This document shows positions 1-27,638 of a DNA stretch of 44,980 bases, piece by piece. Each line of letters starts with the position of its first letter. The first letter of the stretch is position 1. Below the pieces are notes generated by a model. It made no database searches. It was not told where the DNA came from and saw only the letters and a list, made by a program, of their open reading frames with translations. Made by a program: the position numbers and the translations under genes. Source of the stretch: Candidatus Woesearchaeota archaeon (GTDB taxonomy: Archaea; Nanobdellota; Nanobdellia; Woesearchaeales; SKIA01); assembly GCA_007117065.1 (NCBI GenBank), contig SKHI01000010.1:1-44980 (forward strand), written 5' to 3'.

Positions 1-306
1 ATATCCTTCTACTCTGTCATACTGAAACCATCCGACTTGATTTCCCTCTCCGAAAATAATTATTCTTGCATCTCGTTCTGTTATTTTAAAAAAAATGTTT
101 GTTCCGTTTCTGTCACCTGGGCATTCATTGTTGAGCAATAGACTTCCTCCTCCGCAAACAATTAAGTCTATACGCTGTTGTATTTCTTCAAGAGTATTAT
201 TTGGAGGATTTACTGCAGCGTATAAATCCATTACCACGACGAGGGATATGATCATAAGTGCTACAAACGCAAAGAGATGAAGCAATATGGATTCTCCATC
301 AGCCAT
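1..306 (-). CDS. Hypothetical secreted/membrane protein, truncated at its 3' end by the window edge (>=102 aa); last visible gene of the pilin-like operon
   Basis: Absent from the ORF track because there is no stop in the window. My reverse-complement translation from ATG 306-304 stays open to position 1: MADGESILLHLFAFVALMIISLVVVMDLYAAVNPPNNTLEEIQQRIDLIVCGGGSLLLNNECPGDRNG... It has a short polar N-terminus, then a ~22 aa hydrophobic helix. The start overlaps the upstream stop (299-301) by 8 nt. Confidence 0.5.
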   Translation of the reverse strand, partial: MADGESILLHLFAFVALMIISLVVVMDLYAAVNPPNNTLEEIQQRIDLIVCGGGSLLLNNECPGDRNGTNIFFKITERDARIIIFGEGNQVGWFQYDRVEGY

Positions 307-520
307 CTTCGCAACACACCCATCCTTCTCCGCAAAGAGTTTCGTCTATTCGTTCTGAACAGCCAAATGCTAATTCTACACACGTACCTCCGCGTATCTG
401 ACATTCTGCCTGTTGCCCTATCCCAGGCAGTGTTGAGACGCTCTCTTGTATATTCTGTATAACAATAAATCCTATTACTATAACAAGAAGTCCAAGAACT
501 ATAGCAACCCATTTTTCCAT
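299..520 (-). CDS. Small membrane-anchored six-cysteine protein (73 aa)
   Basis: ORF track. N-terminal hydrophobic helix MEKWVAIVLGLLVIVIGFIVI, then CQIRGGTCVELAFGCSERIDETLCGEGWVCC (C-x6-C-x6-C-x8-C-x5-CC). Co-directional in the operon, with a GGAG about 18 nt upstream. Confidence 0.6.
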   Translation of the reverse strand: MEKWVAIVLGLLVIVIGFIVIQNIQESVSTLPGIGQQAECQIRGGTCVELAFGCSERIDETLCGEGWVCCEDG

Positions 521-557
521 ATGTTTTTTGAGCAGTTCTCCTTTTTTAGTGTTTTCT

Positions 558-806
558 TTATTGGGCTGCTTCTCTCATGCAACAGTATCCTGTTTCACAT
601 GTTCCTATTCGTATATGCAGTAGGTTTCGTTGAGCGCACGGCTGATCGCTACAAAACCCTCCTTGGTTTTCACAATCACGAACTGTTTGTCTTCCATCAG
701 TAAATATGCCTGTAAAAAAAACGATGGATAAAATGAGTACAAGCATGCCTAACGCTATTGTTACCAGCATCGTAGTAGTTAATTCTGCACGTCTATTGTC
801 TAACAT
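558..806 (-). CDS. Prepilin-like mini-protein with C-terminal six-Cys domain (82 aa from internal ATG; the ORF track extends to 869)
   Basis: ATG at 806-804 gives MLDNRRAELTTTMLVTIALGMLVLIL: a basic N-terminus, A then E, then a hydrophobic helix. This start cuts the overlap with the upstream gene from 77 to 14 nt. The C-terminus is CENQGGFCSDQPCAQRNLLHIRIGTCETGYCC (C-x6-C-x4-C-x12-C-x4-CC). Confidence 0.55.
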   Translation of the reverse strand: MLDNRRAELTTTMLVTIALGMLVLILSIVFFTGIFTDGRQTVRDCENQGGFCSDQPCAQRNLLHIRIGTCETGYCCMREAAQ

Positions 807-1038
807 AACAACGGTAGCCCTCTTGACAACCTGTGGCGTCCGGAACTTCAGTGTATGATCCTGCAGCATCCATTGGTGGTTGCATCATACATTGTCCTCC
901 CATAACAGGACATGAACGAAGTCCCTCATTGATGTCTCCACCAGAACCCACTACGAGGATTGCTATAATTACAAGAACCAGGAGTGCTATTGCTGCTATA
1001 ATAACAAGATTTAATCCCATACTTTGTGCATGTTTCAT
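793..1038 (-). CDS. Prepilin-like mini-protein, four-Cys variant (81 aa)
   Basis: MKHAQSMGLNLVIIAAIALLVLVIIAILVV is class III signal-like. The C-terminus is CPVMGGQC...CQEGYRC. The N-terminal helix closely resembles that of 1040-1327. Confidence 0.65.
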   Translation of the reverse strand: MKHAQSMGLNLVIIAAIALLVLVIIAILVVGSGGDINEGLRSCPVMGGQCMMQPPMDAAGSYTEVPDATGCQEGYRCYVRQ

Positions 1039-1039
1039 G

Positions 1040-1327
1040 TTAAAATAATCGGGTACAACAGGTAAGAGGATTGTTTGAACTGCTCTGAGAACAACTACGA
1101 GGATTATTAGAAGTCATTCCTTCAGGACACAACTCGCCCTGAGGAACACAAGCATAATCAATCCATTCACGACCCTCCTGCCAAGATTCACAATGATTGA
1201 CTCCTACGTTTATTCCTTGTCCAGAATTCAGTACTAGAGCGATAAGAATAACCATGATAACCAATGCAATGGCAGCAATTATGATGACATTTAAACTCAT
1301 TCCCTGAGCTTTCTTATTTAACAACAT
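1040..1327 (-). CDS. Prepilin-like mini-protein with six-Cys domain (95 aa)
   Basis: MLLNKKAQGMSLNVIIIAAIALVIMVILIALVL has KKA then Q, then a hydrophobic helix. The C-terminus is C-x13-C-x6-C-x11-C-x10-CC. Confidence 0.65.
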   Translation of the reverse strand: MLLNKKAQGMSLNVIIIAAIALVIMVILIALVLNSGQGINVGVNHCESWQEGREWIDYACVPQGELCPEGMTSNNPRSCSQSSSNNPLTCCTRLF

Positions 1328-2479: not shown

Positions 2480-3298
2480 TTAGTTGACAAGTATGTTGCA
2501 GGAACTTCCTAAATGCGTTACTGGAATAATATCTACATATTGACAGGTGTTACCTCGTACCCACGACATACCGCTTCCTCTGCGTATAAATGTTATCGCG
2601 TAATTTTCTGACGCGTCCAACTGTGTTATCATATTCATATATTTAGGAAGATTTGAATCGCAATTTCCATATGTAGATTGCGTATTAAATAAGAATTCTT
2701 CGTATGTACCTCGTACTCCGAGAAGCGGCACTCGTTGTTGCAAGCTAGCCGATAGATCTATCGATACAGGATTACTCGCACTAAAGAATAGTTCTGCGCA
2801 AATAAAACATGTTGAGGCGCGACCAAAGAGATTTCCTGAGTCCAGTATATCTTTTGAACCTTCCAAAAATAAATCCCAACATTCAGCCAATTCGTGTACT
2901 AACGCATTTGACATACGCTCAGAAAAATCTGTTTGAGATGGGTTGAGCGTCCTAAAGGCCATATTTCCTTGTTCGTTTATAATTGGAAAAGAATAATCGC
3001 TCGTTCTTGACTCTTTACCAAAAAAAGACGCGTATACTTCTCTCGCCTCTGAATCTTCTACGAGAAGTATTTTTCTTGGACAATAAATTTCAAATGGATT
3101 CAACCAAGTTCCTGTTCCAAGTATAGGTGATAAACGCTCTCCAAAGAGTTTAAGTTGTATGTTGAGTTGACAAGCTGATTTTGCTGACTGCGCTGTGGCA
3201 CTCAGAGAAGTTACTCCGATGATAAAAAGAATAAGAATTACAGAGAGAAGAAAAAGTGTAAGGGTTGCTACTTTTTGTGTAACAAGTCCTTTTTTCAT
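2480..3298 (-). CDS. Pilin-like secreted protein (272 aa), paralog of 1672-2478
   Basis: MKKGLVTQKVATLTLFLLSVILILFIIGV. AGGAGGT Shine-Dalgarno at 3307-3313, 8 nt upstream of the ATG. ATGA overlap with the upstream micro-ORF. Confidence 0.75.
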   Translation of the reverse strand: MKKGLVTQKVATLTLFLLSVILILFIIGVTSLSATAQSAKSACQLNIQLKLFGERLSPILGTGTWLNPFEIYCPRKILLVEDSEAREVYASFFGKESRTSDYSFPIINEQGNMAFRTLNPSQTDFSERMSNALVHELAECWDLFLEGSKDILDSGNLFGRASTCFICAELFFSASNPVSIDLSASLQQRVPLLGVRGTYEEFLFNTQSTYGNCDSNLPKYMNMITQLDASENYAITFIRRGSGMSWVRGNTCQYVDIIPVTHLGSSCNILVN

Positions 3299-3433: not shown

Positions 3434-3943
3434 TTATTGTGGATTGCAGAGGAAAAGAACTATTTCTACATTCCCCCCTCCTATTCCTTTTGAGAGAAGG
3501 ACTCTTCCTGCACGCGAGGTATCTTGTAAATGAATATCACATATTCCGCGAGTTGCCAACTCATTACATGCGGGGCCGCCAAAGATATCATCACATACTT
3601 CTCTTCGTATACTTAAAAAATATGTGGTTCCATGAAATTCGTCTATTGAACGCTCGAGCGCTTCTATAAACGCATTCCCATACAGATCGTTCTCACATCC
3701 GCCCATATTTCTGTTGGTCGCTTTCCAAATAAAATAATCACCTATACTGTGTCTTATACATTCATGATGAGTTGTTTTTATCCACGCATTGAGGACGTTT
3801 TGTGCGAATTGATCGTTTATGAATCGTTGTGTAGGATCCATTGTGGGTTGTTGTGTATTAAGGCTGAGAAAAAAGAATATCATTACTGTTATGAGCACCA
3901 TTGCTATGGCGAGTCCGAGTATTTCAAATTGTCCTTTTCTCAT
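3434..3943 (-). CDS. Archaeal type IV pilin-like protein (169 aa)
   Basis: MRKGQFEILGLAIAMVLITVMIFFFLSL: RKG then Q, then a hydrophobic helix, a canonical class III signal pattern. Six Cys in the mature part. ATGA overlap at 3940-3943. Confidence 0.75.
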   Translation of the reverse strand: MRKGQFEILGLAIAMVLITVMIFFFLSLNTQQPTMDPTQRFINDQFAQNVLNAWIKTTHHECIRHSIGDYFIWKATNRNMGGCENDLYGNAFIEALERSIDEFHGTTYFLSIRREVCDDIFGGPACNELATRGICDIHLQDTSRAGRVLLSKGIGGGNVEIVLFLCNPQ

Positions 3944-4476
3944 GTTCGAGTCTCCTGTGTTAGTATCAGCATTGCAAATGCGTGTGTTCGATGGATGGGA
4001 TCATAAAGGGTTATTGGAATACTTATTTGTTGGGTTGAGATAGGATTTTCTGATACGAAATCAAATAAGGTAATTTGATTTCCTACTGGGTGGATTACCT
4101 CAATTGTTGCTTTATAGTTTGCTCTTCGTTCAGCAAAGAATTTGTTTGTAAAATACGCTCGTTCTTGGGCAGTACCTTCTATTATCGACGCAAGTGCTCG
4201 CGCTCTGTACTCGTCTATACAGCTTAGCTCTCTTCTTGAGTCTATTGAACACTCTAATTCTGGAAGATTCATGATAACACGTCCTATTTCTAAGAGTTCC
4301 ATTCTGTTCATTCCTGCAAGCACTCCCTGTTCTGACTGAGCGGATCCTGTAGCATACCAATACAAACCAAATATCATGATAATTAAAAAGATAATAAGTA
4401 CTGCTACTATTTCTCCAAGCTGTATTTGTGCTTTAGTAGATTGACGCACAGCGATCCCCTCGTAATAGTCGTTCAT
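3940..4476 (-). CDS. Pilin-like protein (178 aa)
   Basis: ...STKAQIQLGEIVAVLIIFLIIMIFGLYWY. ATG 4476 overlaps the upstream gene by 44 nt. An in-frame GTG at 4449 would give MRQSTKAQ... and a 17 nt overlap, so the start is uncertain. Confidence 0.7.
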   Translation of the reverse strand: MNDYYEGIAVRQSTKAQIQLGEIVAVLIIFLIIMIFGLYWYATGSAQSEQGVLAGMNRMELLEIGRVIMNLPELECSIDSRRELSCIDEYRARALASIIEGTAQERAYFTNKFFAERRANYKATIEVIHPVGNQITLFDFVSENPISTQQISIPITLYDPIHRTHAFAMLILTQETRT

Positions 4477-5473
4477 TTAATTCTCGTACAGCAGAAACAC
4501 GCGCATATAGTTCTGAAAAATCGTATAAAGCGACAGCACTAGAGTCTAAAGTCATGCTTGTACGAAGATTTTCCATTCTGTTAACAAGATAGTTGTCAGT
4601 ACATGAAGAATCAGATTGTGAGGCCAAGTACGATTGTGTTAAAAAACTCATCCGTAATTCTTGTATAAACGCTTGTCTTTGTATTGCTGTTGTGAGTTTG
4701 TGTTGCATACAGTTCGCTCTTGCTGTCTCTGCCTGCCAAAGAAGTGCAAAAAGCATGCCCTCACCTACATAATGATATCCTCCTCGCCACTCTCCTTCTT
4801 CAAAAAAAGATATTTCTCCTCGCTCGAGAATGTTATTCTCATACCGTACGTGTATGTATTGCACTCCTGGTCGCGCGGTAATAGAGACAGGAGCACTATT
4901 TCCCATTGTTACATGGCGGATAGTGCTAAACGTGCGCGTATTGTCTGGAATCACTTCCACGACAAGTCGTTCATCCTGTATCTCTTGAGGAATCGCATCT
5001 AAGAATCGTTGCCTATTTTGTGCAGCAAGATTGTTAGTAGGCACTACGAGTAATTCTTGCGGGTTTGTTACGAGAAGAACATTTCCGATAGTAAACGGTG
5101 TTTGTATTCCTTTACTAAAGAGAATGAGTCTTCCTGTTTCCATGTCTCTTCCTGCTACGAGTTCTGTCTCTAAACTTCTTGTATAAGAGCCTATTTGTAA
5201 TTGACTCAGAAGAAGCACGGTATTTCCTTCGCGTATTGCTTCACACGTAAGACGTATATTTGTTTGAGGGATGTTTGTTGCAAGTGACGAGTCTGGACTT
5301 GCTTGTTGCGCAGAAAGTATCGTATTTACTTGCTCCAGAGCATTTCGTTCTAGTCGTTCTTGCGCCGCGTTTGCTTGTCCGCTTGCTATCATAAAGAATA
5401 TTGTAAGAAGCATTCCTCCAGCAAAGAGTATAAACATCCATACAAATACGAGTGCCATTGCTTTTTTGTTCAT
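4433..5473 (-). CDS. Pilin-like/N-terminally anchored secreted protein (346 aa)
   Basis: MNKKAMALVFVWMFILFAGGMLLTIFFMI. ATGA overlap at 5470-5473. I recognise no family in the mature domain. Confidence 0.75.
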   Translation of the reverse strand: MNKKAMALVFVWMFILFAGGMLLTIFFMIASGQANAAQERLERNALEQVNTILSAQQASPDSSLATNIPQTNIRLTCEAIREGNTVLLLSQLQIGSYTRSLETELVAGRDMETGRLILFSKGIQTPFTIGNVLLVTNPQELLVVPTNNLAAQNRQRFLDAIPQEIQDERLVVEVIPDNTRTFSTIRHVTMGNSAPVSITARPGVQYIHVRYENNILERGEISFFEEGEWRGGYHYVGEGMLFALLWQAETARANCMQHKLTTAIQRQAFIQELRMSFLTQSYLASQSDSSCTDNYLVNRMENLRTSMTLDSSAVALYDFSELYARVSAVRELNERLLRGDRCASIY

Positions 5474-6021
5474 GGCGCTTCAAGTACTCTTGTTGTTTGT
5501 CCTTGACCTTGTAATCGTACTCGTATGTTTCCTCTTTGCGCATCTACACACAGTATGCTATCCGCAGCTGTTTGTATGGGTGCTGATTCTGTACTAAAAC
5601 GCTCTATTGGCTCTACAATTCCTGTTGTGGTTACAGTCCATACATTTGTTTGATCTCCTCGGAGCTCTTGCGTGTTCGTTTGTATGCTTGAGATAATAAT
5701 ATTTTGTGTAGTCTGTCTAACCGTTCCAGAAAAAGAAGTAGGACCAAGACCTTGATTATCTGTAAGAATGTTTCTTCCTGCAAAACAGACTTGTTCTACT
5801 TCACATGGAACGCCCAGTTGTACCACTGTGCTTGTTCCTATTCCTCTATTTCGTTGTATTTCGTTAAGCAGTTGTGTTCCGAATTGTATTCTTTGTGTAT
5901 CGCATCTTCTTTCGTTAAGGTTTTGTAATTCTGAGTAGCCAAAAAGAAGCACTAGTCCAATGATAATAAGGCCTATTACGAACACAAGTATTTGCATGAT
6001 GAGTTGTGCTTTTTTGTTCAT
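5470..6021 (-). CDS. Archaeal type IV pilin-like protein (183 aa)
   Basis: MNKKAQLIMQILVFVIGLIIIGLVLLFGY: KKA then Q, then a hydrophobic helix. The start lies 5 nt after the stop of the 1198 aa gene. Confidence 0.75.
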   Translation of the reverse strand: MNKKAQLIMQILVFVIGLIIIGLVLLFGYSELQNLNERRCDTQRIQFGTQLLNEIQRNRGIGTSTVVQLGVPCEVEQVCFAGRNILTDNQGLGPTSFSGTVRQTTQNIIISSIQTNTQELRGDQTNVWTVTTTGIVEPIERFSTESAPIQTAADSILCVDAQRGNIRVRLQGQGQTTRVLEAP

Positions 6022-6026: not shown

Positions 6027-9000
6027 TTATTCGAACTCTTTTACGAGCTGTTCTCGTTTCGATTTTCGCTCCTCTTCTCGTTTCTTTTTTGCTTCTTCGC
6101 GTAGTTTTGATGTTGCTAAATCAATTTCTGGTTCTGTTTTTTGTTGCTGTAAGATAGTTGATTGTTGTGTTGGTTGATAGGTAGTTTGTGGCGGTCTAAA
6201 AGAGGTTCTACTCGTACTCTCTTGTTGTTTTTCATAATAGATGTATCCTCCTCCACCTGAAATTAAAAGTAAGCCTAAGATTATGAATATGAGTGGGAAT
6301 ACCGAGCGTGATTCTTGTATAGGGAATGGTTCGTCTAATCTTGGCTGTTGTAAAGGCCTATCTGTACAGGTTCCTGTTGAACAAATAAGACTCCCTTGAC
6401 AATCAGAGTCAGTTCTACATCCTTGTCCTTGTGCACACGCGTTTGGACAGCTTCCACCACAATCAATGCCTGTTTCATCACCATTACGGATACCGTCTGT
6501 ACACGATGGCTCTGCACATATCCCTCCTCTACAGCTTCCTGAGGCACAGTCAAAATTGGTAACGCACTTCTTTCCTACTTCACATTTTGGACAGAATGCT
6601 CCTCCACAATCTATATCTGTTTGTCCTTGATTTTGTTCTCCGTTAGAACAAAGTTGTTGTTGATGCTCCAAGTCGCTTCCTATTGGAGGACATGCTGGAC
6701 AACTTCCGCCGCAGTCGACACCTGTTTCATCAGCGTCCTGTATTCCGTTTGAACAATGTGAGAGATATTCTGGTATCGTCACCCGTATCTCTTGCTGTGC
6801 AATATTTCCAGCATGATCGCTTACTTCAACACAAATTCTACTCGTCTCCGTTATCGTAAAGCGCTCTCCAAATCGTGTCATGCTATCCTCTGCTGCCGGA
6901 AATGTGTGCTCACTATACTCGCACGCTGCGTTTGGAGCGACTATTCCTTTTCTGTATGTGCTCGCGCAAGATATGTCGTCTTGACAAATTACTTGCAACG
7001 TTTTTGACTGCACTGTCTCATTTATTGTGTGTAGTCGCGCTATAGGTGGTACCGTATCACAGGAACCTGTTTCTCTTGATTGTGCTCGAACAGATATAAC
7101 TTTAGGTCCTGCTTTGTTATTATTTTTATCAATTGCCCATATGCGTAGCTCGTATTCTTCTCCAGAGACGAGTTCTAGGGATGTTAATGTGTGTGGAAGG
7201 CTTTGTACAGTATAATTTATTCCTATGAATTGAATAATTATTTCTTCAATGTTGTTTGGAATGTTATCTGTTACAAGAGCGCTTACTGTATAACTGGTTA
7301 ATCCACAGGTAAGTTGTTCTCCGTTGAACTCTATTGTCGGAGGAGTTATATCTACTATGAAGTTTTGTTCTTGTGAGGTGGTTTCTTTTGCTAAATATTC
7401 TTCTCTACACTCTGGCGTTATCTCCTCTCCACAGAATTCTATAAAGCAACTGTCTGGAGGATTTTCTCCTCTACAGGGATTTGGAGGACATGCTTCACAG
7501 AGTGTTTCTCGTTCTGAGCAAACGAATACGAAATCATAGACTCCTTCTGAAAATATTTGAGTGGCTCTATGAGTAAATCCTGTCTGAGAAAAAAGAGGTA
7601 TCTCAGTATTTGAAAAGACTGCTCTACAGTTTGCTGGTCTTGTCGTGTCTGCACGTAAGGTTACTTGTCTTTCTTCAACGATTGTTTCTAAAGGAATTAT
7701 TTGATTTGTTACCGGATATTCTGCGTGTACAGTTATTTGATTAGTTGCTTTTCTTTGGTGCGGATTCTCACATGTTATTGTTATTGTTTTCCCGTTTGGC
7801 GGGATGGAAAATTCTATTTCTGCTGTTCGTGCAAGTGGCGTTCTTCCCTGTGCTGATTCTCCTTCATAACACTCCACATATTGATCTGCTTCTATTAAAA
7901 TTGTTGAGTGAGGATTTTGTAATGAGGTTACTATTGCAGGGTTTGCGCTAAGAGTGAATGTGGGTTCTGGTAAATCATATAGTATTCGTAAATTTTTTGT
8001 TGTTGATTGATCAGTAAAGTCTGTACAGGTTACTGAGAAATACGTTGTTTCTCCTCGTTGTATTCCTATCAATTCTATGGCTTCATGAAGAGTGTGCCTG
8101 ATTGCTACTTGATTTGGAGTAAATTGTATTTCCGGGTTTTGAGTAAGAACACAGTTGGAAGGAAATTGTGTTTGTAATGCAAGAGTAAATGGTTCTACAG
8201 CGACGCCGTTTCTTGGAGAGACTATTGATATGTCTTGCGGACGAGGATATGCGCACGCCTCAGAATTCGGCGCTTGTATGACAGTCTGCATAGGATTTCC
8301 TACCACTCCAAGTTCGTTTATTGCACGTACATGAAGTGTTTGCCCTTGAAGACCAATTGGGTGTCTTATGGGCTCTCCTGTATACGCTCGAAGCGCTTCT
8401 TGTTGTACTGCTCCTGCTTGTATATACTGTATAAGAAGGTATCTTGTGTTCTGTGGAGATTGAGCTGTAATAACAGTAGTATCTTGACAACTGTACGCTT
8501 GTACGCTTTGTAATTCCAGCGGCGTCTGTTGCACGCGTACAGGATGAGGTATAGTTATTGTCTCCTCACCATACACACATGTAACGCGTATATTGTTTGT
8601 TGTTCCTGTAAGCACGAGTGCTTGTTGATGTAACGTTTGTTGTTGTAATGCTCCAAGACGTTGTTCACCTTGTTGATCATGTGTACAACGCGCAGGTTTA
8701 TTTGTTTGTACAATGAGTTGATAACTAAACGTCTGTGTTATATCAGGACTTAATATACGCATAGTAAATGGTGTTGATTGAGGGTGTGTTGCTACAATGT
8801 ACTCTCTTCTGGGAAGAATTGTTCCGTGTGCGTTCGTACATACAAGCGCAATTGTTGTTCCTCCTTGTGCACTAAATGTATGCGTATTTCTGTCTATGCT
8901 GTGTTGATTGGTTCCTTCCACACGACAGGTGCTTTGTTGTTCTGTTTGTATTGTTATTGTAGTATGTTCTTGGGGTAGACTTATGGGAGGCCACTGTGTG

Positions 9001-9623
9001 ATGTGTGCGCTTGTGAGAGCTATTTGTTCTTGTTCAGACCAGCCTATTTGCGCAATACGAAGACCAGGTATATCCTCACAACGCAAATCTACATAAAAGA
9101 GTTCTCCTCGTATCAGGGGAAACATATTTGAAAAGTCCGGTACTGAGTGTGCACGGTGATTGTTATCTGATACGAGTCTATTCCAGGAGTTAATGTCGTT
9201 TGGTGAATGCGGTCTCCAGTAACAGCGAGTACTTATTGCAGTAGACACTTCTAAAGAATACGAACCTGCTCTACTCATTCCTCCTTGTGATGGCTCTACG
9301 AGTGTTATTTGTGGTTGCGATACAGTAATGAACAGCTCGTGGACTGCAGGGTTATTTAGTTGATCCGCTGCTTGTAGGAGATATCGATGTGTTCCGTAGA
9401 GAAGGAGTATTTGTTGCATGGATACAGTATTTTCTTGTGCAGTTACTTGTGGGAAAAATACTCCTGGGTGTTGATATAGTATTGCTTGCGGGTTCATTAT
9501 TGTCTCTTGATAGTCCGCTCGTATCGTATTATGTGGTTCTATGGGAAGTATTTCTATTGCCAGTGCTGATTGTACGAACACAAAAAAAAGGCATATGGAT
9601 ATACTTATTCGTAAGAGGTTCAT
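6027..9623 (-). CDS. Giant type I membrane surface protein (1198 aa): Sec signal, tandem Ig-like modules, Cys-rich repeats, TM helix, K/E-rich tail
   Basis: Signal MNLLRISISICLFFVFVQSALA. At least six ~90-100 aa modules each have a Cys pair (e.g. TITIQTEQQSTCRVEG...TIALVCTN; TLALQTQFPSNCVLTQ...YFSVTCTD). D-x-AGN/KNNN strand motifs. C-terminal TM VFPLIFIILGLLLISGGGGYIYY (6234-6302) and tail ...LREEAKKKREEERKSKREQLVKEFE. Confidence 0.9.
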   Translation of the reverse strand: MNLLRISISICLFFVFVQSALAIEILPIEPHNTIRADYQETIMNPQAILYQHPGVFFPQVTAQENTVSMQQILLLYGTHRYLLQAADQLNNPAVHELFITVSQPQITLVEPSQGGMSRAGSYSLEVSTAISTRCYWRPHSPNDINSWNRLVSDNNHRAHSVPDFSNMFPLIRGELFYVDLRCEDIPGLRIAQIGWSEQEQIALTSAHITQWPPISLPQEHTTITIQTEQQSTCRVEGTNQHSIDRNTHTFSAQGGTTIALVCTNAHGTILPRREYIVATHPQSTPFTMRILSPDITQTFSYQLIVQTNKPARCTHDQQGEQRLGALQQQTLHQQALVLTGTTNNIRVTCVYGEETITIPHPVRVQQTPLELQSVQAYSCQDTTVITAQSPQNTRYLLIQYIQAGAVQQEALRAYTGEPIRHPIGLQGQTLHVRAINELGVVGNPMQTVIQAPNSEACAYPRPQDISIVSPRNGVAVEPFTLALQTQFPSNCVLTQNPEIQFTPNQVAIRHTLHEAIELIGIQRGETTYFSVTCTDFTDQSTTKNLRILYDLPEPTFTLSANPAIVTSLQNPHSTILIEADQYVECYEGESAQGRTPLARTAEIEFSIPPNGKTITITCENPHQRKATNQITVHAEYPVTNQIIPLETIVEERQVTLRADTTRPANCRAVFSNTEIPLFSQTGFTHRATQIFSEGVYDFVFVCSERETLCEACPPNPCRGENPPDSCFIEFCGEEITPECREEYLAKETTSQEQNFIVDITPPTIEFNGEQLTCGLTSYTVSALVTDNIPNNIEEIIIQFIGINYTVQSLPHTLTSLELVSGEEYELRIWAIDKNNNKAGPKVISVRAQSRETGSCDTVPPIARLHTINETVQSKTLQVICQDDISCASTYRKGIVAPNAACEYSEHTFPAAEDSMTRFGERFTITETSRICVEVSDHAGNIAQQEIRVTIPEYLSHCSNGIQDADETGVDCGGSCPACPPIGSDLEHQQQLCSNGEQNQGQTDIDCGGAFCPKCEVGKKCVTNFDCASGSCRGGICAEPSCTDGIRNGDETGIDCGGSCPNACAQGQGCRTDSDCQGSLICSTGTCTDRPLQQPRLDEPFPIQESRSVFPLIFIILGLLLISGGGGYIYYEKQQESTSRTSFRPPQTTYQPTQQSTILQQQKTEPEIDLATSKLREEAKKKREEERKSKREQLVKEFE
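6360..6758 (-). repeat. Three tandem protein-level Cys-rich repeats, C-x-[ND]-G-x-[QR]-[DN]-x-x-[EQ]-T-x-[VI]-D-C-G-G-x(1,2)-C; the last two are followed by C-x4-DC-x-SG-x-C-x2-G-x-C modules
   Basis: HCSNGIQDADETGVDCGGSCPACP / LCSNGEQNQGQTDIDCGGAFCPKCEVGKKCVTNFDCASGSCRGGICAEP / SCTDGIRNGDETGIDCGGSCPNACAQGQGCRTDSDCQGSLICSTGTCTD. Coordinates were counted back from the stop codon. Confidence 0.8.
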
Positions 9624-12553
9624 TCTGCGCTAAACTCCGGCCGTTCTGGTCCTGTAAAGTCTTCCTCAATACGAGTAAGAGTGAGCGGTGTCGCTTGAAG
9701 TCCGTTTACATCCACACAGATAAATCTTGTTTGCCCGCTTCCTGTAAGCAGCTGGTTTTGTGCAGTGAGTGTTTCTCCGTTCATGGTTATTCGCTCTACA
9801 GGCGCTGTGAATGTTCCTGGTGTTTCTTCATCTCCATGAACAGGAGTTTTTCTACAACGCACAGATATTGATAACCCTTCTTCAGGTACTGCTACTGTTT
9901 GGCTTTGCGTAATGAGTGTTTCTTGTCCGTCTAGAATTGTTGTTATTTCTATTCTTGGCGGTTGCGCGTCTACTGCAAAAGTGATATCTGGTCCTCTTGC
10001 TGCTTCTGTTCCGAAGAAACATCGCGTAGGATAACGATAAAACCCTGACTCAGTAATTGTCTTTGTTCGCGTATATGCTTGCCACGGTCCTGAATATCCG
10101 TTAATAATAATGTTTTGCGGTTGTCCAGTTGGTTGCATAGTAATCCATTCGGTTCCATCTCTGTATTGACAAATTCCTTCCAGTTCCCCTCCTACTGCCT
10201 TATGTATTCCTAGCGTTCTTGTTCCGGGAGGATATGCGGGGTTTGTCAGGAATGGTAAGCTTCTTTGCACGCGTGCGTCAAGATGTATGGTTACTGGAAG
10301 GTCTTTACGAATGGTCGTTGTACCTTGTTTACAAATTACTTCATATGAATATGTTCCTTCTTGATGGGTGTTTATGAATTGGAATCGGTCATTACTTGTT
10401 CCTGCGTGCATTGTTGTTCCTGATAGTTTTAGTTCACAAAATGCTCTTCTATTTGTTTGCCATGAAATACGTATTTGGCTACTATTAGCCCATGGATAAT
10501 TTTGTATTACTTCATAATTGGGCTCTTCTATAAACAGTAATCCTTCAGGAATCAGCAAGGTTACCTCTCGTACTTCTTCTCTGTTATCATTCATATCTTG
10601 GCTAAAGTATCGTAAACAATATTCTCCAGGTTCTGTTATATCTGAAAGATTAAATATTCCTCTACTTCGGTCTACCAATCCTGTGCTTTCAAACTCATCA
10701 TGTTCTAATCCCTCACATCTTTGTTCGTACACTCGAGCATATGTTCGAAATACTTGGACGTTATCTGTTGCTGCGAAGCGAATGATTGGTTGTACACTTT
10801 CTATTGCGTTCGTGTTTGTGAGAAGTGTTGTTTGCGGGTTTTGAAAATCAGTGAGTCGTGCTCGAGTTTGACTAAGACCCGATGGATCTGCTCGACAAAC
10901 ATTGTTACTCCAGATACACTTTGGAAGGTCAAACCGATTCTGGCTTTCTCGTATGGGTATGTTTGTTCTTCTATCCAGTTGAAATGGTGTTCCTCCGTGA
11001 CAAGCATCAGGTGTTTCGAATTGGTCGCAGAAAAGCATGTCGTTTCTGTTTCGACATCTATTATCAAGCCACATACATTGTTCTCCTAGAGAGTCGCATG
11101 TTTGTTCTGAATATGCTTGACTACACTGTATGAGTTCCGGTCTGGAGCTGACACAGAAATCTACTTCATTATTCCACTCGCAACCATGTCGTACTAAGCA
11201 TGGATTGTTATCGCATGCTCGTTGAGAATTGTACGTGCTACAACTCGTTACTTGTGAGCAGCTGTTATATTCTTGAAGTATCGTTGTGGTAAAGTCAAGG
11301 TAACAGAGTCCAAAGCGCTCCTGACCAATTTGAAAACGTTCTAATTCGCTACAGAGAACTGATTCATGTTCAGTATTTCCTATAGTAAAGCTGATTCTAT
11401 TTTCACTTACTTCTCCAAAACTTTGGTGTGCTTTATTACAATCTGAACAGGGTACTTCGTTTACGCAGAGTGCGCGAACATCTCCTGCTTCACTCGCTGT
11501 AACGCACTTTAATCCAGTTCCACAAGATATTTCTTGGGCAATGTTTTGTAGGTTACAGTTTATTGCAAGATTTGCGTTTTGACAGTACGCCACTACTCCG
11601 TCCGTACATGCAGCATCTCCTGGGTTGAATGTTCTTTGGATGGTTCTTACTTGTTCTTGACCAGAAATACTATAGGTTACAGAAAGGATTACTTCGTACT
11701 CTGTTTCAGCATTAAAGTTCTCTACAACAATAGTGTCACTCATTGCTCCAGGAGTGAATGCGTATACCCCTGGAATAAACAAGGAGATAGACTGTATTTC
11801 TAAGGCACATGTTTGGGGTATAGTATAGGTTATATTTGCATGCGGGAAACCATGAACATTGCGTACTGTCAGTCCAAGTTGTGGTATCTGCTCACATTCT
11901 GTTTCGGTGCACGATTGTTCTTGCGGATTACAGGTTCCTGGTTCGTAATCATTAACAGGGTCGTATAGGCATGTACATGCCGGCGTGCACTGTTGTGTTC
12001 TTCCAGTCGGAGCTTGCGGACAATGAGTTATATCCGTGCCGTCACAGATAATGCCTTGGTCTGGGTATGCTATGCCGTCTCCACACAACTCTCCTATATC
12101 TCCTGGTGGCGGTGTTGGTGTTGTTGGACAGGTTGTTCCTTCAACGATGCTTCCCATACAACAAACAAATCCCGAAGTAATAACTTCCATTCCACACAAA
12201 CAGTTTGTTCCTCCTTCAGAACAATTAGGTATTGCTGGTGGTGGTGGACAATCATCTTCTCCAAATTCGCCTGCTACACTATTACAAAACGCTCGTGTCA
12301 CATCAAGTATAGTCTCCCCGGTTCCCAGGGTGCAACACCCTTCTGTACAAAGATTGATTCCTTCCTCTTGTCCAGGGCCGTAATAAATACCTCCTTGCTC
12401 GGCACATACCTCTTGGCCAATGTTTTCTATACATGCTCCTTCTACAATACAGTAGCTTGGAAGGATGATTATTTGTTCATCGAGCGCAGTTACAAAAGAG
12501 GGTGCTAGTAGGAGCATTATTGCCAGCACCCATAGTATTTTTGTGTGTATCAT
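9620..12553 (-). CDS. Large Cys-rich secreted protein (977 aa)
   Basis: Signal MIHTKILWVLAIMLLLAPSFVTALD. The N-terminal ~220 aa are very Cys-dense (CC, CLCG, VCCMG) with a PTTPTPPP linker. The C-terminal third has Cys-paired Ig-like modules like those of the 1198 aa neighbour (FCELKLSG...YEVICKQG; ICQYRDG...PTRCFFG). ATGA overlaps at both ends. Confidence 0.9.
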   Translation of the reverse strand: MIHTKILWVLAIMLLLAPSFVTALDEQIIILPSYCIVEGACIENIGQEVCAEQGGIYYGPGQEEGINLCTEGCCTLGTGETILDVTRAFCNSVAGEFGEDDCPPPPAIPNCSEGGTNCLCGMEVITSGFVCCMGSIVEGTTCPTTPTPPPGDIGELCGDGIAYPDQGIICDGTDITHCPQAPTGRTQQCTPACTCLYDPVNDYEPGTCNPQEQSCTETECEQIPQLGLTVRNVHGFPHANITYTIPQTCALEIQSISLFIPGVYAFTPGAMSDTIVVENFNAETEYEVILSVTYSISGQEQVRTIQRTFNPGDAACTDGVVAYCQNANLAINCNLQNIAQEISCGTGLKCVTASEAGDVRALCVNEVPCSDCNKAHQSFGEVSENRISFTIGNTEHESVLCSELERFQIGQERFGLCYLDFTTTILQEYNSCSQVTSCSTYNSQRACDNNPCLVRHGCEWNNEVDFCVSSRPELIQCSQAYSEQTCDSLGEQCMWLDNRCRNRNDMLFCDQFETPDACHGGTPFQLDRRTNIPIRESQNRFDLPKCIWSNNVCRADPSGLSQTRARLTDFQNPQTTLLTNTNAIESVQPIIRFAATDNVQVFRTYARVYEQRCEGLEHDEFESTGLVDRSRGIFNLSDITEPGEYCLRYFSQDMNDNREEVREVTLLIPEGLLFIEEPNYEVIQNYPWANSSQIRISWQTNRRAFCELKLSGTTMHAGTSNDRFQFINTHQEGTYSYEVICKQGTTTIRKDLPVTIHLDARVQRSLPFLTNPAYPPGTRTLGIHKAVGGELEGICQYRDGTEWITMQPTGQPQNIIINGYSGPWQAYTRTKTITESGFYRYPTRCFFGTEAARGPDITFAVDAQPPRIEITTILDGQETLITQSQTVAVPEEGLSISVRCRKTPVHGDEETPGTFTAPVERITMNGETLTAQNQLLTGSGQTRFICVDVNGLQATPLTLTRIEEDFTGPERPEFSAE

Positions 12554-13584
12554 GGTAACGATGTTGAGCAGCTTAAACTGAACCTTGTTTCTATACCGTG
12601 TAGGTCTTTTATAGTTATCGGATTATAAGACTCGCAATGATTTGGTCCTGCGTTTTCATTCACCCTAAATGCGTATCTATTTTCTGTCAGGTGTGAAAAA
12701 TATTGTTTTTCTCCGATTGTTGAGGAAACAAATAGTTCATCTCCATCTAGTGAGATGAGAGTCACTGTGCATCCATCAACACAACTTATTAGTCCATTAG
12801 GAGATACTATGTCATTGTCTTCGTTTACGATAAGTATTCCTCTATTTGCGAGACGTATTGTGGTAACGTGTTCTCCTGCTACAACTACTGAGTATCTTTT
12901 TGTTCCGTCTGACTCATTTCCTATATAACTAAATTCGGTCGTTCTACATTGATCACAGCCTTGCAATGCTATTGATCTTGTCTCATTTAGGAAGTGAGAA
13001 GTGTTTGTGAGTTCTTGCTGTAGGAGTGCGCGAATTCCTGCCCACGCGCTAAATAAGTGCGTTTGTTCTGTTCGCGTTATATCATTCCAGCGCACTAATA
13101 TGCTATCTCGCTGTATGATTACTTCTGGCAAAGAGCTTATTTCGGTGCATCTCTGCATGTGGTCGCGTATTGCGGCTTGCATGCTTGTTTGTATGCTTGG
13201 TTGATTGGCTGTTTCTATACCATAATTCATTATTCCGCAGCTCGCCAGGGGTACGCTTTGTAAAGCGTTTGCTCCTGTTTTTGAACAGAGTGGAACAAAA
13301 TTTCCTCTCCCCATAATATATATTTCTGAATCTTCAATATACTTTGTTGGGATATGCGCTCCTCGTGCATCAGTGGTAATCACTCCTTCATCTCGTAATG
13401 AAGCTAGTGCTTGCTGCGTGCTTGCTGCAAGACAGCTTCGAAGAAAATTTTCTTCAAGACCGGCTATCTCTACCGGAGCAGTTTCTTCTTGTCTCGACTC
13501 AGATACAATAAGTATGAGTACGGATACAGACAGTAAGAGTGTTAAGCCGATGATGAGAAACATGCTTATTTGTGCTCGTCTCAT
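12550..13584 (-). CDS. Archaeal type IV pilin-like protein with large head domain (344 aa)
   Basis: MRRAQISMFLIIGLTLLLSVSVLILIV closely resembles the class III signal consensus (R-G/A-Q-I-S-hydrophobic). ATGA overlaps at both ends. Confidence 0.8.
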   Translation of the reverse strand: MRRAQISMFLIIGLTLLLSVSVLILIVSESRQEETAPVEIAGLEENFLRSCLAASTQQALASLRDEGVITTDARGAHIPTKYIEDSEIYIMGRGNFVPLCSKTGANALQSVPLASCGIMNYGIETANQPSIQTSMQAAIRDHMQRCTEISSLPEVIIQRDSILVRWNDITRTEQTHLFSAWAGIRALLQQELTNTSHFLNETRSIALQGCDQCRTTEFSYIGNESDGTKRYSVVVAGEHVTTIRLANRGILIVNEDNDIVSPNGLISCVDGCTVTLISLDGDELFVSSTIGEKQYFSHLTENRYAFRVNENAGPNHCESYNPITIKDLHGIETRFSLSCSTSLP

Positions 13585-14765
13585 CTTGTTGTTCTATCCT
13601 GTATAATCCGGGACCACTCACGCGCAGAATAACAAAGTGGTTCTTCTTGTACACCAATTATTTCTTTTCCTTGTGGACAGAGCGAACCCGCTACGAAATC
13701 AACAGAAGCAATATTTGTTGTTGAACTCCCTATCATGCTTCTTCGTTGTTCAATAAAGAACTGTCCTGCTGCTGTAGAGGAAACTTCTGCGTTTGACCGA
13801 CCAAATAATCCACCAAGCCAACTCCAAGCTCGTCGCACCCCCGTACCTCCTAAGTGATCCGCATTCGTGTATATGATTGCTCTTGGTGAACTGCTTTCAG
13901 CAAAAGATAATTCCGCTTCCTTGAGATATGGAAATGACCTTCCCAGATCCACAGATTGATTTATGAAATCATCATAGTCTATTGGCGCGTTGGGATGCAT
14001 TATTCTTATTTGGTCAAAAAGATCTTGTCCAGAGGCATCTTCTTGTAAGAATGCACCTATAAGTATTCTTCCCGACTGTTGGAACGTAAGCTGGCAATAC
14101 CCTTGACTATCCGCATCAGGTCTATTTATAGAATCTGTAATATCAGTGCTACAATGCAATGTGAACGGAGTGTTTTCAGCAACATTACCGAGACGAAGAA
14201 TTTCATTCGCTAGAGGAATTAATTTACTACCCCAAGTTGCGCTCGTAGCTCCTTCTTCAAGGACGCAAAGATAGTCAGACTGTACAGTGCCTACAGGAAC
14301 ACACCCTGTTGTTACTGCGCACAAGTGTGCTGGACAATGCGAAGTACGTAGACTTGGAGGAGGACGTAATTTTTCTGTTGCGCGAACTACTTCCCCATCA
14401 TGGCAAGCAAATCGTTCATAATTAACACCTGCCGCAGTTCCATTCATAATAAGGGTTTCGACATCACTTCTCCAAACCCATGAATCTTCATAATATACGC
14501 ATGTACGAGTTGAACCAGCAGCTAGTTCTGTACATACAGAATTTTGTTGAATAAAATTATCATCTACATCCCAGATGGTTCCACACAGATGCACTATTCC
14601 ATCAACAAGAAGTCCGCTTGCTGTTGTATTACCTCCTGGAGGGTGCATTCCAGTCAGATTATTCGTTTGGGGAATAGGCGGAAACTGTAGCGCGAAAACA
14701 GATCCTACAAAAAAAATACTTAACAAAAGTATTGTGCTTATTCGGAGAAAAATCGTTTGGTTCAT
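13581..14765 (-). CDS. Secreted hypothetical protein (394 aa)
   Basis: Sec-type signal MNQTIFLRISTILLLSIFFVGSVFALQ. Multiple Cys. ATGA overlaps at both ends. No family recognised. Confidence 0.8.
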   Translation of the reverse strand: MNQTIFLRISTILLLSIFFVGSVFALQFPPIPQTNNLTGMHPPGGNTTASGLLVDGIVHLCGTIWDVDDNFIQQNSVCTELAAGSTRTCVYYEDSWVWRSDVETLIMNGTAAGVNYERFACHDGEVVRATEKLRPPPSLRTSHCPAHLCAVTTGCVPVGTVQSDYLCVLEEGATSATWGSKLIPLANEILRLGNVAENTPFTLHCSTDITDSINRPDADSQGYCQLTFQQSGRILIGAFLQEDASGQDLFDQIRIMHPNAPIDYDDFINQSVDLGRSFPYLKEAELSFAESSSPRAIIYTNADHLGGTGVRRAWSWLGGLFGRSNAEVSSTAAGQFFIEQRRSMIGSSTTNIASVDFVAGSLCPQGKEIIGVQEEPLCYSAREWSRIIQDRTTR

Positions 14766-26237: not shown

Positions 26238-27638
26238 ATGGATGAAGAAATAACAGGAATTAATAGGGAGCTGTATGATACACCAAGTAAATTAGAGTAC
26301 ATCTATAAGGCTCCTGAAGGATTAACTGAAGATATTATTAGAAAAATTTCTTCTGATAACAACGAGCCTGAATGGATGCTTACCTTGCGCTTAGAAGCAT
26401 TCGAATTGTTCAAGAAAGCACCTATGCCTACTTGGGGGCCTGATCTCAGTGAATTAGACTTAGATAAAATTATTTATTATCAACATCCTGATGCACCTTA
26501 TAATCAAAAAAATTGGGATGATGTTCCTGATAACGTTAAAGAAACATTTGAGAAACTTGGAATTCCTGAGGCTGAACGTAAAGCTCTTGCTGGAGCGGGT
26601 GCGCAAATGGAAAGTAAGATGGCGTATCATAATCTCAAAGAAGAGTGGGAGTCTCAAGGAGTTATTTTTCTTGACATGGACGAAGCGCTCAAACTCCACC
26701 CAGAATTAGTAAAACAATACTTTAGTAAAGTTGTTCCGATTAACGACCATAAATTCGCTTCATTACATTATGCTGTCTGGTCTGGAGGAACATTCCTCTA
26801 TATTCCAAAGGGCGTTCATGTGAGTCAACCGGTGCAAGCATACTTTCGCATGAATAGTATGCGTGGAGGACAGTTTGAGCACACTCTCATTGTCGTTGAA
26901 GAAGACGCTCATGGTTCATACTATGAAGGCTGTTCTGCGCCAAAATATGATGATAAGAGCTTACACGCTGGTTGTGTAGAAGTATTTGTAAAAAAGAATT
27001 CTCGCTTCCGATACTCTTCTGTAGAAAATTGGAGCTCTAACACGTATAATTTGAATACCAAAAGAGGTATCGTGTATAAAGACGCCACCCTTGAATGGGT
27101 TGGTGGAAACCTCGGATCTGGTTGTACTATGCTTTATCCCTGCTCCCTATTAGTAGCTGAGGGAGCACGAGCTGAGCACTTAGCTATTGCTTTTGCGACC
27201 AAAGGACAGAACCAAGATACTGGTGCAAAAGTATATCATAATGCGCCAAGAACCACTTCGCGCATTGTTTCTAAATCAATTGCGATTCAGGGAGGCATTA
27301 CTGCGTATCGCGGACTATTGCGTATTGCCAAAGGAGCTAAAGGCGCTAAATCCAATGTTGAGTGTGACGCCCTCATGATTGATAACATTTCTCAATCGAA
27401 TACCTATCCATACATTGATATTCAAGAACAAGATGTTGATGTCGGTCACGAAGCTACTGTTGGACGCATTTCTGATGAACAAATATTCTATCTCATGAGC
27501 AGAGGTATTTCTGAAGAAGATGCGGTTGCTATGCTCGTAAATGGGTTTATGGAGCCCATCACTAAAGAGCTTCCTATAGAGTATGCTGCTGAGATGAACA
27601 AGCTCATTGCTCTCGAAATGGAAGGAAGTATTGGATAG
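26238..27638 (+). CDS. sufB: Fe-S cluster assembly protein SufB
   Basis: Full-length SufB-like sequence, including YYEGCSAP, the conserved C-terminal beta-helix region and ...GRISDEQIFYLMSRGISEEDA. Confidence 0.93.
   Translation: MDEEITGINRELYDTPSKLEYIYKAPEGLTEDIIRKISSDNNEPEWMLTLRLEAFELFKKAPMPTWGPDLSELDLDKIIYYQHPDAPYNQKNWDDVPDNVKETFEKLGIPEAERKALAGAGAQMESKMAYHNLKEEWESQGVIFLDMDEALKLHPELVKQYFSKVVPINDHKFASLHYAVWSGGTFLYIPKGVHVSQPVQAYFRMNSMRGGQFEHTLIVVEEDAHGSYYEGCSAPKYDDKSLHAGCVEVFVKKNSRFRYSSVENWSSNTYNLNTKRGIVYKDATLEWVGGNLGSGCTMLYPCSLLVAEGARAEHLAIAFATKGQNQDTGAKVYHNAPRTTSRIVSKSIAIQGGITAYRGLLRIAKGAKGAKSNVECDALMIDNISQSNTYPYIDIQEQDVDVGHEATVGRISDEQIFYLMSRGISEEDAVAMLVNGFMEPITKELPIEYAAEMNKLIALEMEGSIG

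Follow-up and report, generated by a model that had tools for sequence, protein, structure and literature searches.

Five cysteine-rich mini-protein genes on a Woesearchaeota contig

We analyzed a 44,980-nucleotide stretch of DNA from a Candidatus Woesearchaeota archaeon (contig SKHI01000010.1 of assembly GCA_007117065.1), hereafter called the window, which is archaeal and carries genes for TBP and MCM. The analysis centered on five open reading frames (ORFs) encoding cysteine-rich mini-proteins, labeled P1 to P5, all on the minus strand. The initial annotation had described them as mini-pilins of 70 to 100 amino acids (aa) with an N-terminal hydrophobic helix and a small C-terminal cysteine knot of beta-defensin-like spacing. 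The translations confirmed all five ORFs at the coordinates reported there, together with every cysteine spacing and the shared sub-motifs, and P1 to P4 were also called by the independent gene callers of two other public assemblies of the same contig.

As seen in the translations, P1 (positions 299 to 520, 73 aa) carries the short leader MEK, without an [AG] residue, a hydrophobic helix and a head with the pattern C-x6-C-x6-C-x8-C-x5-CC. P2 (558 to 806, 82 aa) has a leader that reads RRA/ELTTT around the putative processing site (marked here by a slash), a helix and the head C-x6-C-x4-C-x12-C-x4-CC. P3 (793 to 1038, 81 aa) is a four-cysteine variant, which retains C1, C2, C4 and C5 and in which CY replaces CC. 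P4 (1040 to 1327, 95 aa) combines a canonical leader (KKAQGMSLNVIIIAAIAL) with a divergent head, C-x13-C-x6-C-x11-C-x10-CC. P5 (37005 to 37301, 98 aa; leader KKA/EIAIG; C-x7-C-x5-C-x12-C-x25-CC) is the first gene of a conserved three-gene module. The sub-motifs CQIRGGTC, CENQGGFC, CPVMGGQC and CTDTYGGVC are present, as is C-x-E/T-G-W/Y. The genes are tightly packed: P3 starts 1 nucleotide past the stop of P4, P2 and P3 overlap by 14 nucleotides, and the gene after P1 has a possible ATG start overlapping the P1 stop. The helices of P3 and P4 had been called near-identical, which overstates their likeness, as only 21 of 38 residues (55%) are identical; the synonymous differences reported between them are real, 13 of these 21 residues using different codons.

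The mini-proteins belong to a large unannotated archaeal family

A word-index homolog search with P2 returned P2 alone. Relatives were reached by synteny, through the MCM/TBP loci and through a homolog of the peptidoglycan hydrolase encoded in the P1-P4 operon, and by exhaustive profile search. A P5 ortholog lies beside TBP and MCM in the Woesearchaeota metagenome-assembled genome (MAG) L005, whose GC content (about 60%) is much higher than that of the window. It has 97 aa and the pattern C-x7-C-x5-C-x12-C-x23-CC, a gene for a large secreted protein comes next, and its phmmer score against P5 is 59 bits for the whole protein and 27 bits when just the heads are compared; L088 (P0136) is the third genome with this arrangement. 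The sole homolog found for the hydrolase, P0004 (30% identity), is encoded on contig L085, where an ortholog of P1 and the 3' part of one of P2 lie upstream in the same order as in the window. The P1 ortholog (L085, 189 to 398) has a nearly identical helix and the pattern C-x6-C-x3-C-x8-C-x5-CC (51 bits in phmmer), and the P2 fragment (L085, 3 to 146) reads C-x6-C-x4-C-x11-C-x5-CC. Conservation of the cysteines in orthologs had been set as a test of the initial annotation; since the orthologs of P1, P2 and P5 all keep the six cysteines, that objection falls away.

Next, the HMMER search for which the initial annotation had called was run exhaustively with a profile of the five full-length paralogs. 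Counted as clusters at the 50% identity level, it gave 2409 hits at E <= 1e-3 and 113 at E <= 1e-10. We inspected the top 150 of the 2409 clusters, nearly all of which are full-length matches of 75 to 100 aa, and motif counts were taken from the top 145 small hits. Six cysteines follow the helix in 132 of the 145, and all but one of these (131/132) end in CC. The C1-C2 loop has 6 residues in 113/145 and reads C-x3-GG-x-C in 112/145; four-cysteine variants like P3 number 9/145, and two tandem heads occur in 2/145 (P0007 and P0145). The family consensus is MKKAQG-[IL]-S-[IL]-N, a hydrophobic helix of about 22 residues, a short linker and C-x6-C-x3-6-C-x10-12-C-x5-CC with C-x3-GG-x-C.

All family members that carry a name are "hypothetical proteins" of Woesearchaeota or Nanoarchaeota MAGs, which come from groundwater, from lakes and from the ocean. 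Within the family, separate counterparts exist for each paralog type: P3-like orthologs (P0008, P0009, P0011 and P0013), P4-like orthologs with similar spacing (P0012, P0017, P0022 and P0124), a P2-like member (P0113) and a P5-like one (P0136). The duplicates are therefore old, as had been proposed. Overall, the profile and the orthologs indicate that P1 to P5 form a real paralogous family and belong to a large unannotated family of cell-surface proteins of about 80 aa, seen so far only in Woesearchaeota and Nanoarchaeota (DPANN).

Two observations were made alongside these searches. The best-scoring hit of the archaeal profile was an abalone protein, P0005 (Haliotis rufescens XP_048246515.1, "mucin-22-like"), with 19 tandem C-x6-C-x5-C-x10-C-x5-CC domains joined by mucin-like TTTLATTTL linkers; it scores 131.8 bits in sum and about 21 bits per repeat, and Pfam does not annotate the repeats as defensin. 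In another Woesearchaeota (L014, 2065 to 2888), two tandem secreted proteins of about 130 to 140 aa represent an unrelated small cysteine-rich family, with near-identical N-terminal halves (MKIEINI.KKH...NIGWLP.QRIAKS) and different cysteine-rich C-terminal tails.

The head domain most resembles the beta-defensin fold

To describe the head, we aligned 75 family heads (alignment A4), in which all six cysteines are invariant and one glycine is nearly so. The beta-defensin framework, taken as C-x(4-8)-C-x(3-5)-C-x(9-13)-C-x(4-7)-CC, served as a yardstick. The gaps of P2 (6/4/12/4/0), the most beta-defensin-like of the window copies, and the most frequent gaps of the family (6, 3 to 6, 10 to 12, 5 and 0) agree with this framework; those of P1 (6/6/8/5) are slightly outside these ranges, and P4 and P5 have one long loop each. 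The six-cysteine C-terminal head with beta-defensin-like spacing, along with its four-cysteine variant, is thus upheld, and for a wider family than the five copies in which it was noticed.

Searching the A4 profile against all PDB sequences gave 29 matches at E <= 10, and 29 of 29 are proteins of the beta-defensin fold. The tick carboxypeptidase inhibitor (TCI) came out at E = 4.7e-6, followed by mBD-8 (8.9e-4), crotamine (1.6e-3) and hBD1 (about 6e-3); the others include BNBD-12, platypus DLP-1, gallinacin-11, helianthamide, hBD3 and oyster big defensins. When the 75 heads were scanned one by one with Pfam (E < 1), Defensin_beta matched 23/75 (best E = 8.2e-6), Inhibitor_I68 21/75 and Defensin_beta_2 13/75, with further matches to Myotoxins and Defensin_big. 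One individually tested family member passes the curated Defensin_beta cut-off of 21 bits, with 22.1 bits, and all 21 Inhibitor_I68 matches fall under the cut-off of 25 bits (best 23.0). P1, P3, P4 and P5 have no Pfam Defensin_beta hit.

In hhalign, A4 aligned with the C-terminal domain of TCI at 95.4% probability and with hBD1 at 80.3%. We then kept the cysteines fixed and shuffled all other residues, which lowered the TCI score from 24.7 to 4.5 ± 4.2 bits, with 0/300 shuffles reaching the real score, and the hBD1 score from 20.0 to 3.0 ± 4.2 bits, with 1/300 reaching it. The human beta-defensin (hBD) 1 sequence entered in this control scored 20.0 bits, the same as the corresponding PDB entry. 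Since the signal is lost when the noncysteine residues are shuffled, the resemblance is not one of cysteine spacing alone.

AlphaFold2 (AF2) predicted the P2 head as a short helix and three strands with a pLDDT of 75.6 when given the five paralogs, and reached 82.1 with 75 sequences. In Foldseek searches of the PDB, mBD-7, hBD2, hBD1, AvBD11 and hBD4 ranked at the top for one model and DLP-1, hBD1 and mBD-8 for the other, with TM-scores normalized by target length (TMt) of 0.55 to 0.68 and root mean square deviations of 2.0 to 2.8 Å. The four-cysteine proteins bear on the disulfide pairing: ten of them (P3 and nine others) all lack exactly C3 and C6, with CY replacing CC. This joint loss is consistent with a C3-C6 bond, which we regard as supported, while the C1-C5 and C2-C4 bonds are assumed.

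We also weighed other small disulfide-rich folds and rejected them, as knottin, EGF, toxin and cis-defensin folds appear neither among the PDB profile hits nor among the top Foldseek hits; the Pfam family Toxin_12 gave weak matches to 3/75 members only, and a weak AtDEF-like Pfam hit of full-length members was discounted because it vanishes when the cysteine domain alone is scanned. The evidence on the fold consists of predictions and of short, cysteine-rich alignments. On this evidence, the head most resembles the beta-defensin (trans-defensin) fold. Judged by the fold-restricted profile hits, hhalign, the Foldseek ranking of hits to the AF2 models and the paired absence of C3 and C6, the resemblance is stronger than the initial annotation, which favored convergence on a small knot, had assumed.

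The leader and helix resemble class III signal peptides

Family members share the same domain order, a short basic leader, a conserved hydrophobic helix of about 22 residues, a Gly-rich linker of about 10 residues and a head of 35 to 45 residues. The consensus of leader and helix is mmKKAQG-l-S-i-N-VIIIAAIALLVLVILaviF, with the variant KK[AG]-[DE]-L-S-I-N. A [KR][GAS] pair precedes the hydrophobic run by 1 to 6 residues in 139/145 members, and the leader and helix columns carry 2.5 to 3.8 bits, compared with 0.6 to 1.3 bits in the noncysteine columns of the head. By inspection and regular expressions, a basic leader with [GA] at position -1 and a hydrophobic stretch of about 20 residues fits P2 (RRA/E), P3 (KHA/Q), P4 (KKA/Q) and P5 (KKA/E). 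Archaeal class III signal peptides are of the Q-x-S-x-E type. The family motif resembles them, with Asn in place of Glu. The motif counts thus bear out the N-terminal hydrophobic helix with a class-III-signal-like leader.

P1 to P4 lie in a long operon of pilin-like and cysteine-rich proteins

P1 to P4 are part of one very long minus-strand operon, which runs from position 16705 to beyond position 1 of the window and continues on the longer ENA contig L003. No operon product has a Pfam hit except the hydrolase described below, and NCBIfam scans of the window proteins and their neighbors likewise returned no family. Most products start with a basic leader, [AG] and then Q, E or M and a hydrophobic stretch (for example, MRKG/QFEILGL, MNKKA/QLIMQIL and MRRA/QISMF). 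More than 10 neighboring proteins, among them the peptidoglycan hydrolase, share this [KR][AG]-Q/E/M plus hydrophobic N terminus, often with an early Glu.

The window genes of this operon listed below are all on the minus strand. The operon starts at 12550 to 16705 with a pilin-like protein of 344 aa (MRRA/QISMF) and two secreted cysteine-rich proteins of 394 and 647 aa. Two giant cysteine-rich secreted proteins without Pfam hits follow, one of 1198 aa and one of 977 aa (6027 to 9623 and 9620 to 12553). The 1198-aa protein has a repeated D-x-x-E-T-G-x-DCGG-x-C-P-x-C motif near its end, a transmembrane anchor and a Lys/Glu-rich tail. Counterparts of the giant proteins, which are putative adhesins or surface scaffolds, occur in related operons (1326 and 1962 aa in L094, 1311 aa in L095). 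At 3434 to 6021, four proteins without Pfam hits have class-III-signal-like N termini (MRKG/QFEILGL, STKA/QIQLGEI, MNKKA/MALVF and MNKKA/QLIMQIL), with analogous genes in L094, L093 and L086.

Closer to P1 to P4, two paralogous 272-aa proteins (1672 to 2490 and 2480 to 3298) each have an N-terminal helix and conserved cysteines and are conserved operon components. The paralogs share a conserved-cysteine pattern, ADFYWCELSF...TFCHVCA in one and ELAECWDLFLEG...TCFICAE in the other. A homolog lies at the equivalent place in L086 (3555 to 4373), and a word-index search with the 272-aa neighbor returned the query alone. Between these genes and P4 lie two further mini-proteins. The one at 1359 to 1511 (50 aa) has a hydrophobic helix with no cysteine and hence no cysteine head; it was called by the gene callers, and a similar 46-aa gene is present in L086. 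The other, at 1508 to 1675 (55 aa; MNKKG/MEVSALV..., beginning MNKKGMEVSALV...), has a helix and a two-cysteine tail. The public assemblies have no gene call for it, but ATGA overlaps of start and stop codons at both ends give it the appearance of a genuine gene of the operon.

Beyond P1, positions 1 to 308 hold the 5' part of the next operon gene, a 204-aa ORF (MADGESILLHLFAFVALMII...) that runs off the window. On L003 (10215 to 14797), three more helix-bearing proteins follow and then, as the last operon gene, a protein of 733 aa (12596 to 14797 of L003, about 2.4 kb beyond window position 1). It has the prepilin-like N terminus MRKG/AAGILMPIFTLAMIVL (MRKG/AAGIL...) and Peptidase_M23, GH108 lysozyme and PG_binding_3 domains, all above their Pfam cut-offs, and has the appearance of a peptidoglycan hydrolase that is mounted in the manner of a pilin.

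Related operons have the same composition as that of the window, with helix-bearing proteins, 272-aa homologs and giant cysteine-rich proteins. Tandem family members occur there too, two each in L086, L094 and L095 and three in L092. Cell-wall enzymes stand at the operon ends: Amidase_2 plus SLT in L094, a 3D-domain protein in L095, and M23 plus GH108 in L085 and in the window operon. In L092 (5987 to 7560), two DsbA/thioredoxin-like genes and a gene for a Cu-binding MopE-like protein lie directly upstream of the three tandem members; these could be a disulfide-forming system for the mini-proteins.

P5 heads a separate module

P5-type members head a module of three genes, for the mini-protein, a large secreted protein and a C-terminally anchored protein of about 190 aa. 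In the window, the conserved partner directly downstream of P5, with a 16-nucleotide overlap, is a 1070-aa secreted protein with a signal peptide (33808 to 37020, minus strand), and ORFs of 812 aa in L005 and 873 aa in L088 occupy the homologous position. The third gene (33242 to 33811, minus strand) encodes a 189-aa protein that has a signal peptide at its N terminus, the motif CGDGRC...CPQDC and a membrane anchor at its C terminus; its counterparts in L088 and L096 have 199 and 186 aa, and L096 has a similar module.

The surroundings of P5 are also conserved. A Suf cluster (SufB/SufD, cysteine desulfurase and SufC; 26238 to 33245) adjoins the module, and the neighborhood of Suf genes, P5 module, TBP and MCM is kept in L005 and L088. 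The window MCM is 75% identical to that of L005 and 57 to 64% identical to those of about 80 other Woesearchaeota and Nanoarchaeota genomes. In a related Woesearchaeota (L088 to L091, 5424 to 9074), MCM contains an intein (Intein_splicing and LAGLIDADG; 1216 aa in total), and the window MCM (38217 to 40247, 676 aa) has none.

Proposed role of the mini-proteins and alternative explanations

The net charge of the heads averages -2.7, with only 2.8% of members at +2 or more and the window copies at -1 to -6. Because the heads are anionic, an antimicrobial role is less likely, and a cationic antimicrobial role, considered as a candidate, was down-weighted after this count. The explanation that fits best, and to which we give an even chance, is that the mini-proteins are pilin-like, prepilin-processed, defensin-headed surface proteins acting in an attachment or attack apparatus against bacterial cell walls. 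Under this model, Sec would insert the mini-protein, and a prepilin-type (PibD/EppA-type) peptidase would cut the class III leader after [AG]. The conserved helix would then form the core of a thin fiber like a type IV pilus, or serve to anchor the mini-protein amid the operon's other pilin-like products. The three-disulfide, beta-defensin-like head would present a compact, protease-resistant and mostly anionic outer surface, which hypervariable loops and two to five tandem paralogs might diversify. Together with the giant cysteine-rich proteins and the helix-anchored peptidoglycan hydrolases, the mini-proteins would make up an apparatus aimed at bacterial cell walls. What we observe is the family and its conservation, the motif, the likeness in fold and the linkage within operons; cleavage, assembly and target are what we infer from these.

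Several observations pull the other way, some concerning the head and some the helix. P2 alone found no defensin among the PDB sequences, only a chance zinc-finger match, and its Defensin_beta scores (15.0 bits full-length, 16.7 bits domain-only) are under the 21-bit cut-off. The mature heads of the five paralogs show no detectable mutual similarity in pairwise phmmer comparisons (10 bits or less); the idea that they are recognizably homologous on their own was accordingly dropped, and what links them is the profile of the wider family. In Foldseek, every E-value was at least 1, as expected for about 40 residues, and AF2 may have reproduced a memorized fold from cysteine spacing alone. In the structural check suggested by the initial annotation, beta-defensins thus ranked first with no E-value below 1. 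These points, and a charge opposite to that of defensins, would also fit a superficial likeness, in which the six-cysteine pattern and the Gly turn arose by convergence, AF2 reproduced a fold it had memorized, and the actual structure or disulfide pairing is a different one. We consider this explanation, which is limited to the head and would go with any localization, unlikely. It has to account for 29 of 29 PDB profile hits in one fold class with no knottin, EGF, toxin or cis-defensin among them, for a signal that survives a control preserving the cysteine positions, for hhalign probabilities of 95% and 80%, for a joint loss of C3 and C6 that fits the beta-defensin pairing, and for a pLDDT that rises to 82 with the deeper alignment. 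The relation of the family heads to animal defensins may be either homology or convergence. A bolder proposal is that the heads share true homology with the big and beta-defensins of animals, with trans-defensins being ancient or exchanged between DPANN and animals, and that they are displayed on a new minimal disulfide-knotted pilus together with peptidoglycan hydrolases, recognizing the bacterial cell wall (peptidoglycan, lipid II) as part of a predatory or parasitic organelle against bacteria; this we regard as speculative and rather doubtful.

As to the helix, P1 and its ortholog have only ME[KR] or MDR before it and no [AG] site, and a FlaFind-type pattern of the form [KRDE][GA][ALIFQMVED][ILMVTAS]x3 matches P2 and P5, fails on P1, P3 and P4, and finds 35/145 members. 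Part of the high N-terminal conservation is a selection effect, because the profile used to rank the hits itself contains the helix. Neither the window proteins nor 137 family members matched a pilin or archaellin N-terminal model of Pfam or NCBIfam, a weak negative, since a canonical-looking control pilin (L037, KKGQAAMEFL...) was also missed. Neither the 45-kb window nor the ±10 kb around eight loci (among them L086, L088, L092/93, L094, L095, L096 and L003) yielded a type IV pilus ATPase, a TadC/FlaJ-type platform protein or a prepilin peptidase. Of the mini-pilin claim, the pilin-like leader and helix therefore stand, whereas pilin models, linked machinery and the [KR][AG] motif in P1 are wanting, and pilin identity is plausible but unproven. 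Signal-anchored membrane proteins, with a permanent transmembrane helix and the head under the S-layer as a binding or inhibitor module against the operon's own metallo-hydrolases or host proteases, would explain the missing pilus machinery near every locus examined and P1 without a peptidase site. They would also suit the anionic heads, which are not like antimicrobial peptides, the protease inhibitor TCI as the strongest head match (E = 4.7e-6, hhalign 95%) and the M23 or Amidase_2 zinc hydrolases in the same operons. We see this as a real possibility on the unlikely side, given that a plain anchor would not be expected to carry Q-G-[IL]-S-[IL]-N or [DE]-L-S-I-N right behind KK[AG], that the helix is more strongly conserved than is usual for anchors, that a dozen co-operonic proteins have prepilin-like N termini, and that TCI inhibits by means of a C-terminal tail and two domains, which the mini-proteins lack. 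If the helix were instead a long cleavable signal peptide, a free knot of about 45 aa could act on bacterial hosts as an antimicrobial, a cell wall or lipid II binder or an enzyme inhibitor. The beta-defensin-like head, the linkage to peptidoglycan-degrading enzymes and the small residues (G/S) after the helix, which could serve signal peptidase, speak for such secreted effectors. Nevertheless, we find them quite improbable: the hydrophobic stretch of about 22 to 25 residues exceeds the usual Sec h-region, no AxA-type site is conserved, a sequence-conserved leader and helix is atypical for signal peptides, and the mean charge of -2.7 is unlike that of membrane-active defensins. That the small ORFs are chance ORFs or misannotations rather than genes has practically no probability left. 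Their shortness, the absence of a Pfam or NCBIfam family for them and the word-index searches, in which P2 found only itself, speak for it; yet this reading is already refuted by conservation, with cysteines kept in orthologs from genomes differing in GC content and thousands of homologs, and operonic start/stop overlaps and agreeing independent gene calls also speak against it.

Significance

What the window holds is a defensin-type knot in a new domain of life and in a new architecture, not a proven member of the beta-defensin or pilin family. According to the literature, trans-defensins (alpha-, beta-, theta- and big defensins) are confined to animals, and the defensins reported from prokaryotes are all cis-defensins (PMC11561630). 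With more than 2000 DPANN clusters showing the trans-defensin framework, either the origin of the fold moves or a large independent convergence has taken place, and either outcome bears on the origins of defensin folds. An abundant unannotated family of Woesearchaeota and Nanoarchaeota also gains a structural label and a tie to the peptidoglycan-hydrolase operons from which attacks of these archaea on bacteria have been argued (PMC8204110, PMC9723730). Should the mini-proteins prove to be pilins, their helix of about 24 residues and three-disulfide knob of 40 residues would represent a minimal pilin architecture of a new kind. As small, synthesizable proteins they are targets for host-interaction tests, and small, very stable, loop-variable knots are attractive as scaffolds.

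Comparison with known systems

The heads share with vertebrate beta-defensins and invertebrate big defensins (PF00711, PF13841, PF14862) the six-cysteine framework ending in CC, matching loop lengths and a GG/G-x-C turn between C1 and C2, which reads CVSSGGQC in hBD1 and CRVRGGRC in hBD3. A short helix and a three-stranded sheet are likewise predicted for the archaeal head, and C3 and C6 are lost jointly. In contrast, the family is archaeal rather than animal and anionic rather than cationic, its head is fused to a conserved pilin-like helix instead of following a eukaryotic signal and propeptide, its genes stand in tandem within surface-apparatus operons, and the window copies are under the Pfam cut-off. 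The best sequence match of the family profile is TCI (MEROPS I68, PDB 2k2z/1zlh), in which CKGKGGEC...C...CGKGQKCCV aligns with the archaeal consensus CenkGGtC...C...CpegkvCCv. Its domain is a noncationic beta-defensin-fold domain with a binding or inhibitory rather than lytic role. However, TCI is a secreted animal protein without a membrane helix and has two tandem domains, inhibiting M14 carboxypeptidases by its C-terminal tail, whereas most archaeal members are single-domain and two heads are found only in P0007 and P0145.

The literature searched held nothing relevant linking defensins with DPANN, Woesearchaeota or Nanoarchaeota. The bacterial cis-defensins xanthusin and actifensin belong to the CS-alpha/beta superfamily, and trans-defensins are stated to occur in vertebrates and some invertebrates (PMC11561630). 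Xanthusin and actifensin are, like the archaeal heads, prokaryotic disulfide-rich peptides of defensin type, but the archaeal profile matches no cis-defensin structure in the PDB. Woesearchaeota and Pacearchaeota share a module ("Module 98") of 51 lineage-specific, mostly unannotated families that include large lytic-transglycosylase proteins (Castelle et al. 2021, PMC8204110), and it has been argued from peptidoglycan degradation that these archaea prey on bacteria (PMC8204110; Vigneron et al. 2022, PMC9723730). Those systems and the operons described here have in common the lineages, unannotated surface-protein operons with murein hydrolases and an inferred contact with bacterial walls, while the two reports describe no cysteine-knot family of about 80 aa, pilin-like leader or defensin resemblance. 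In Thermoproteales, archaeal pilus loci with cysteine-rich components have been noted (PMC4858521).

Among pilins, the mini-proteins are like very small type IV pilins in their short basic leader, [GA] site, conserved hydrophobic helix, mature size of about 60 to 80 aa, several paralogs per locus and neighbors of the "minor pilin" kind. Examples of such pilins are the bacterial Flp/Tad pilins, Geobacter PilA-N and Methanococcus maripaludis EpdE. They have no head or a minimal one without disulfides and are encoded alongside, or plainly served by, a pilus ATPase, a platform protein and a peptidase, whereas the archaeal mini-proteins bear a three-disulfide knot, have no linked machinery and match no pilin hidden Markov model. 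A further parallel is the Sulfolobus bindosome, in which class III signal peptides are found on nonpilin surface proteins and sugar-binding proteins are displayed with the help of the dedicated Bas assembly system. There, enzymes or binding proteins with prepilin-type N termini are mounted on the cell surface, which is comparable to the 733-aa M23/GH108 hydrolase with its prepilin-like N terminus; the cargo in the operon of the archaeal mini-proteins, in contrast, consists of peptidoglycan hydrolases.

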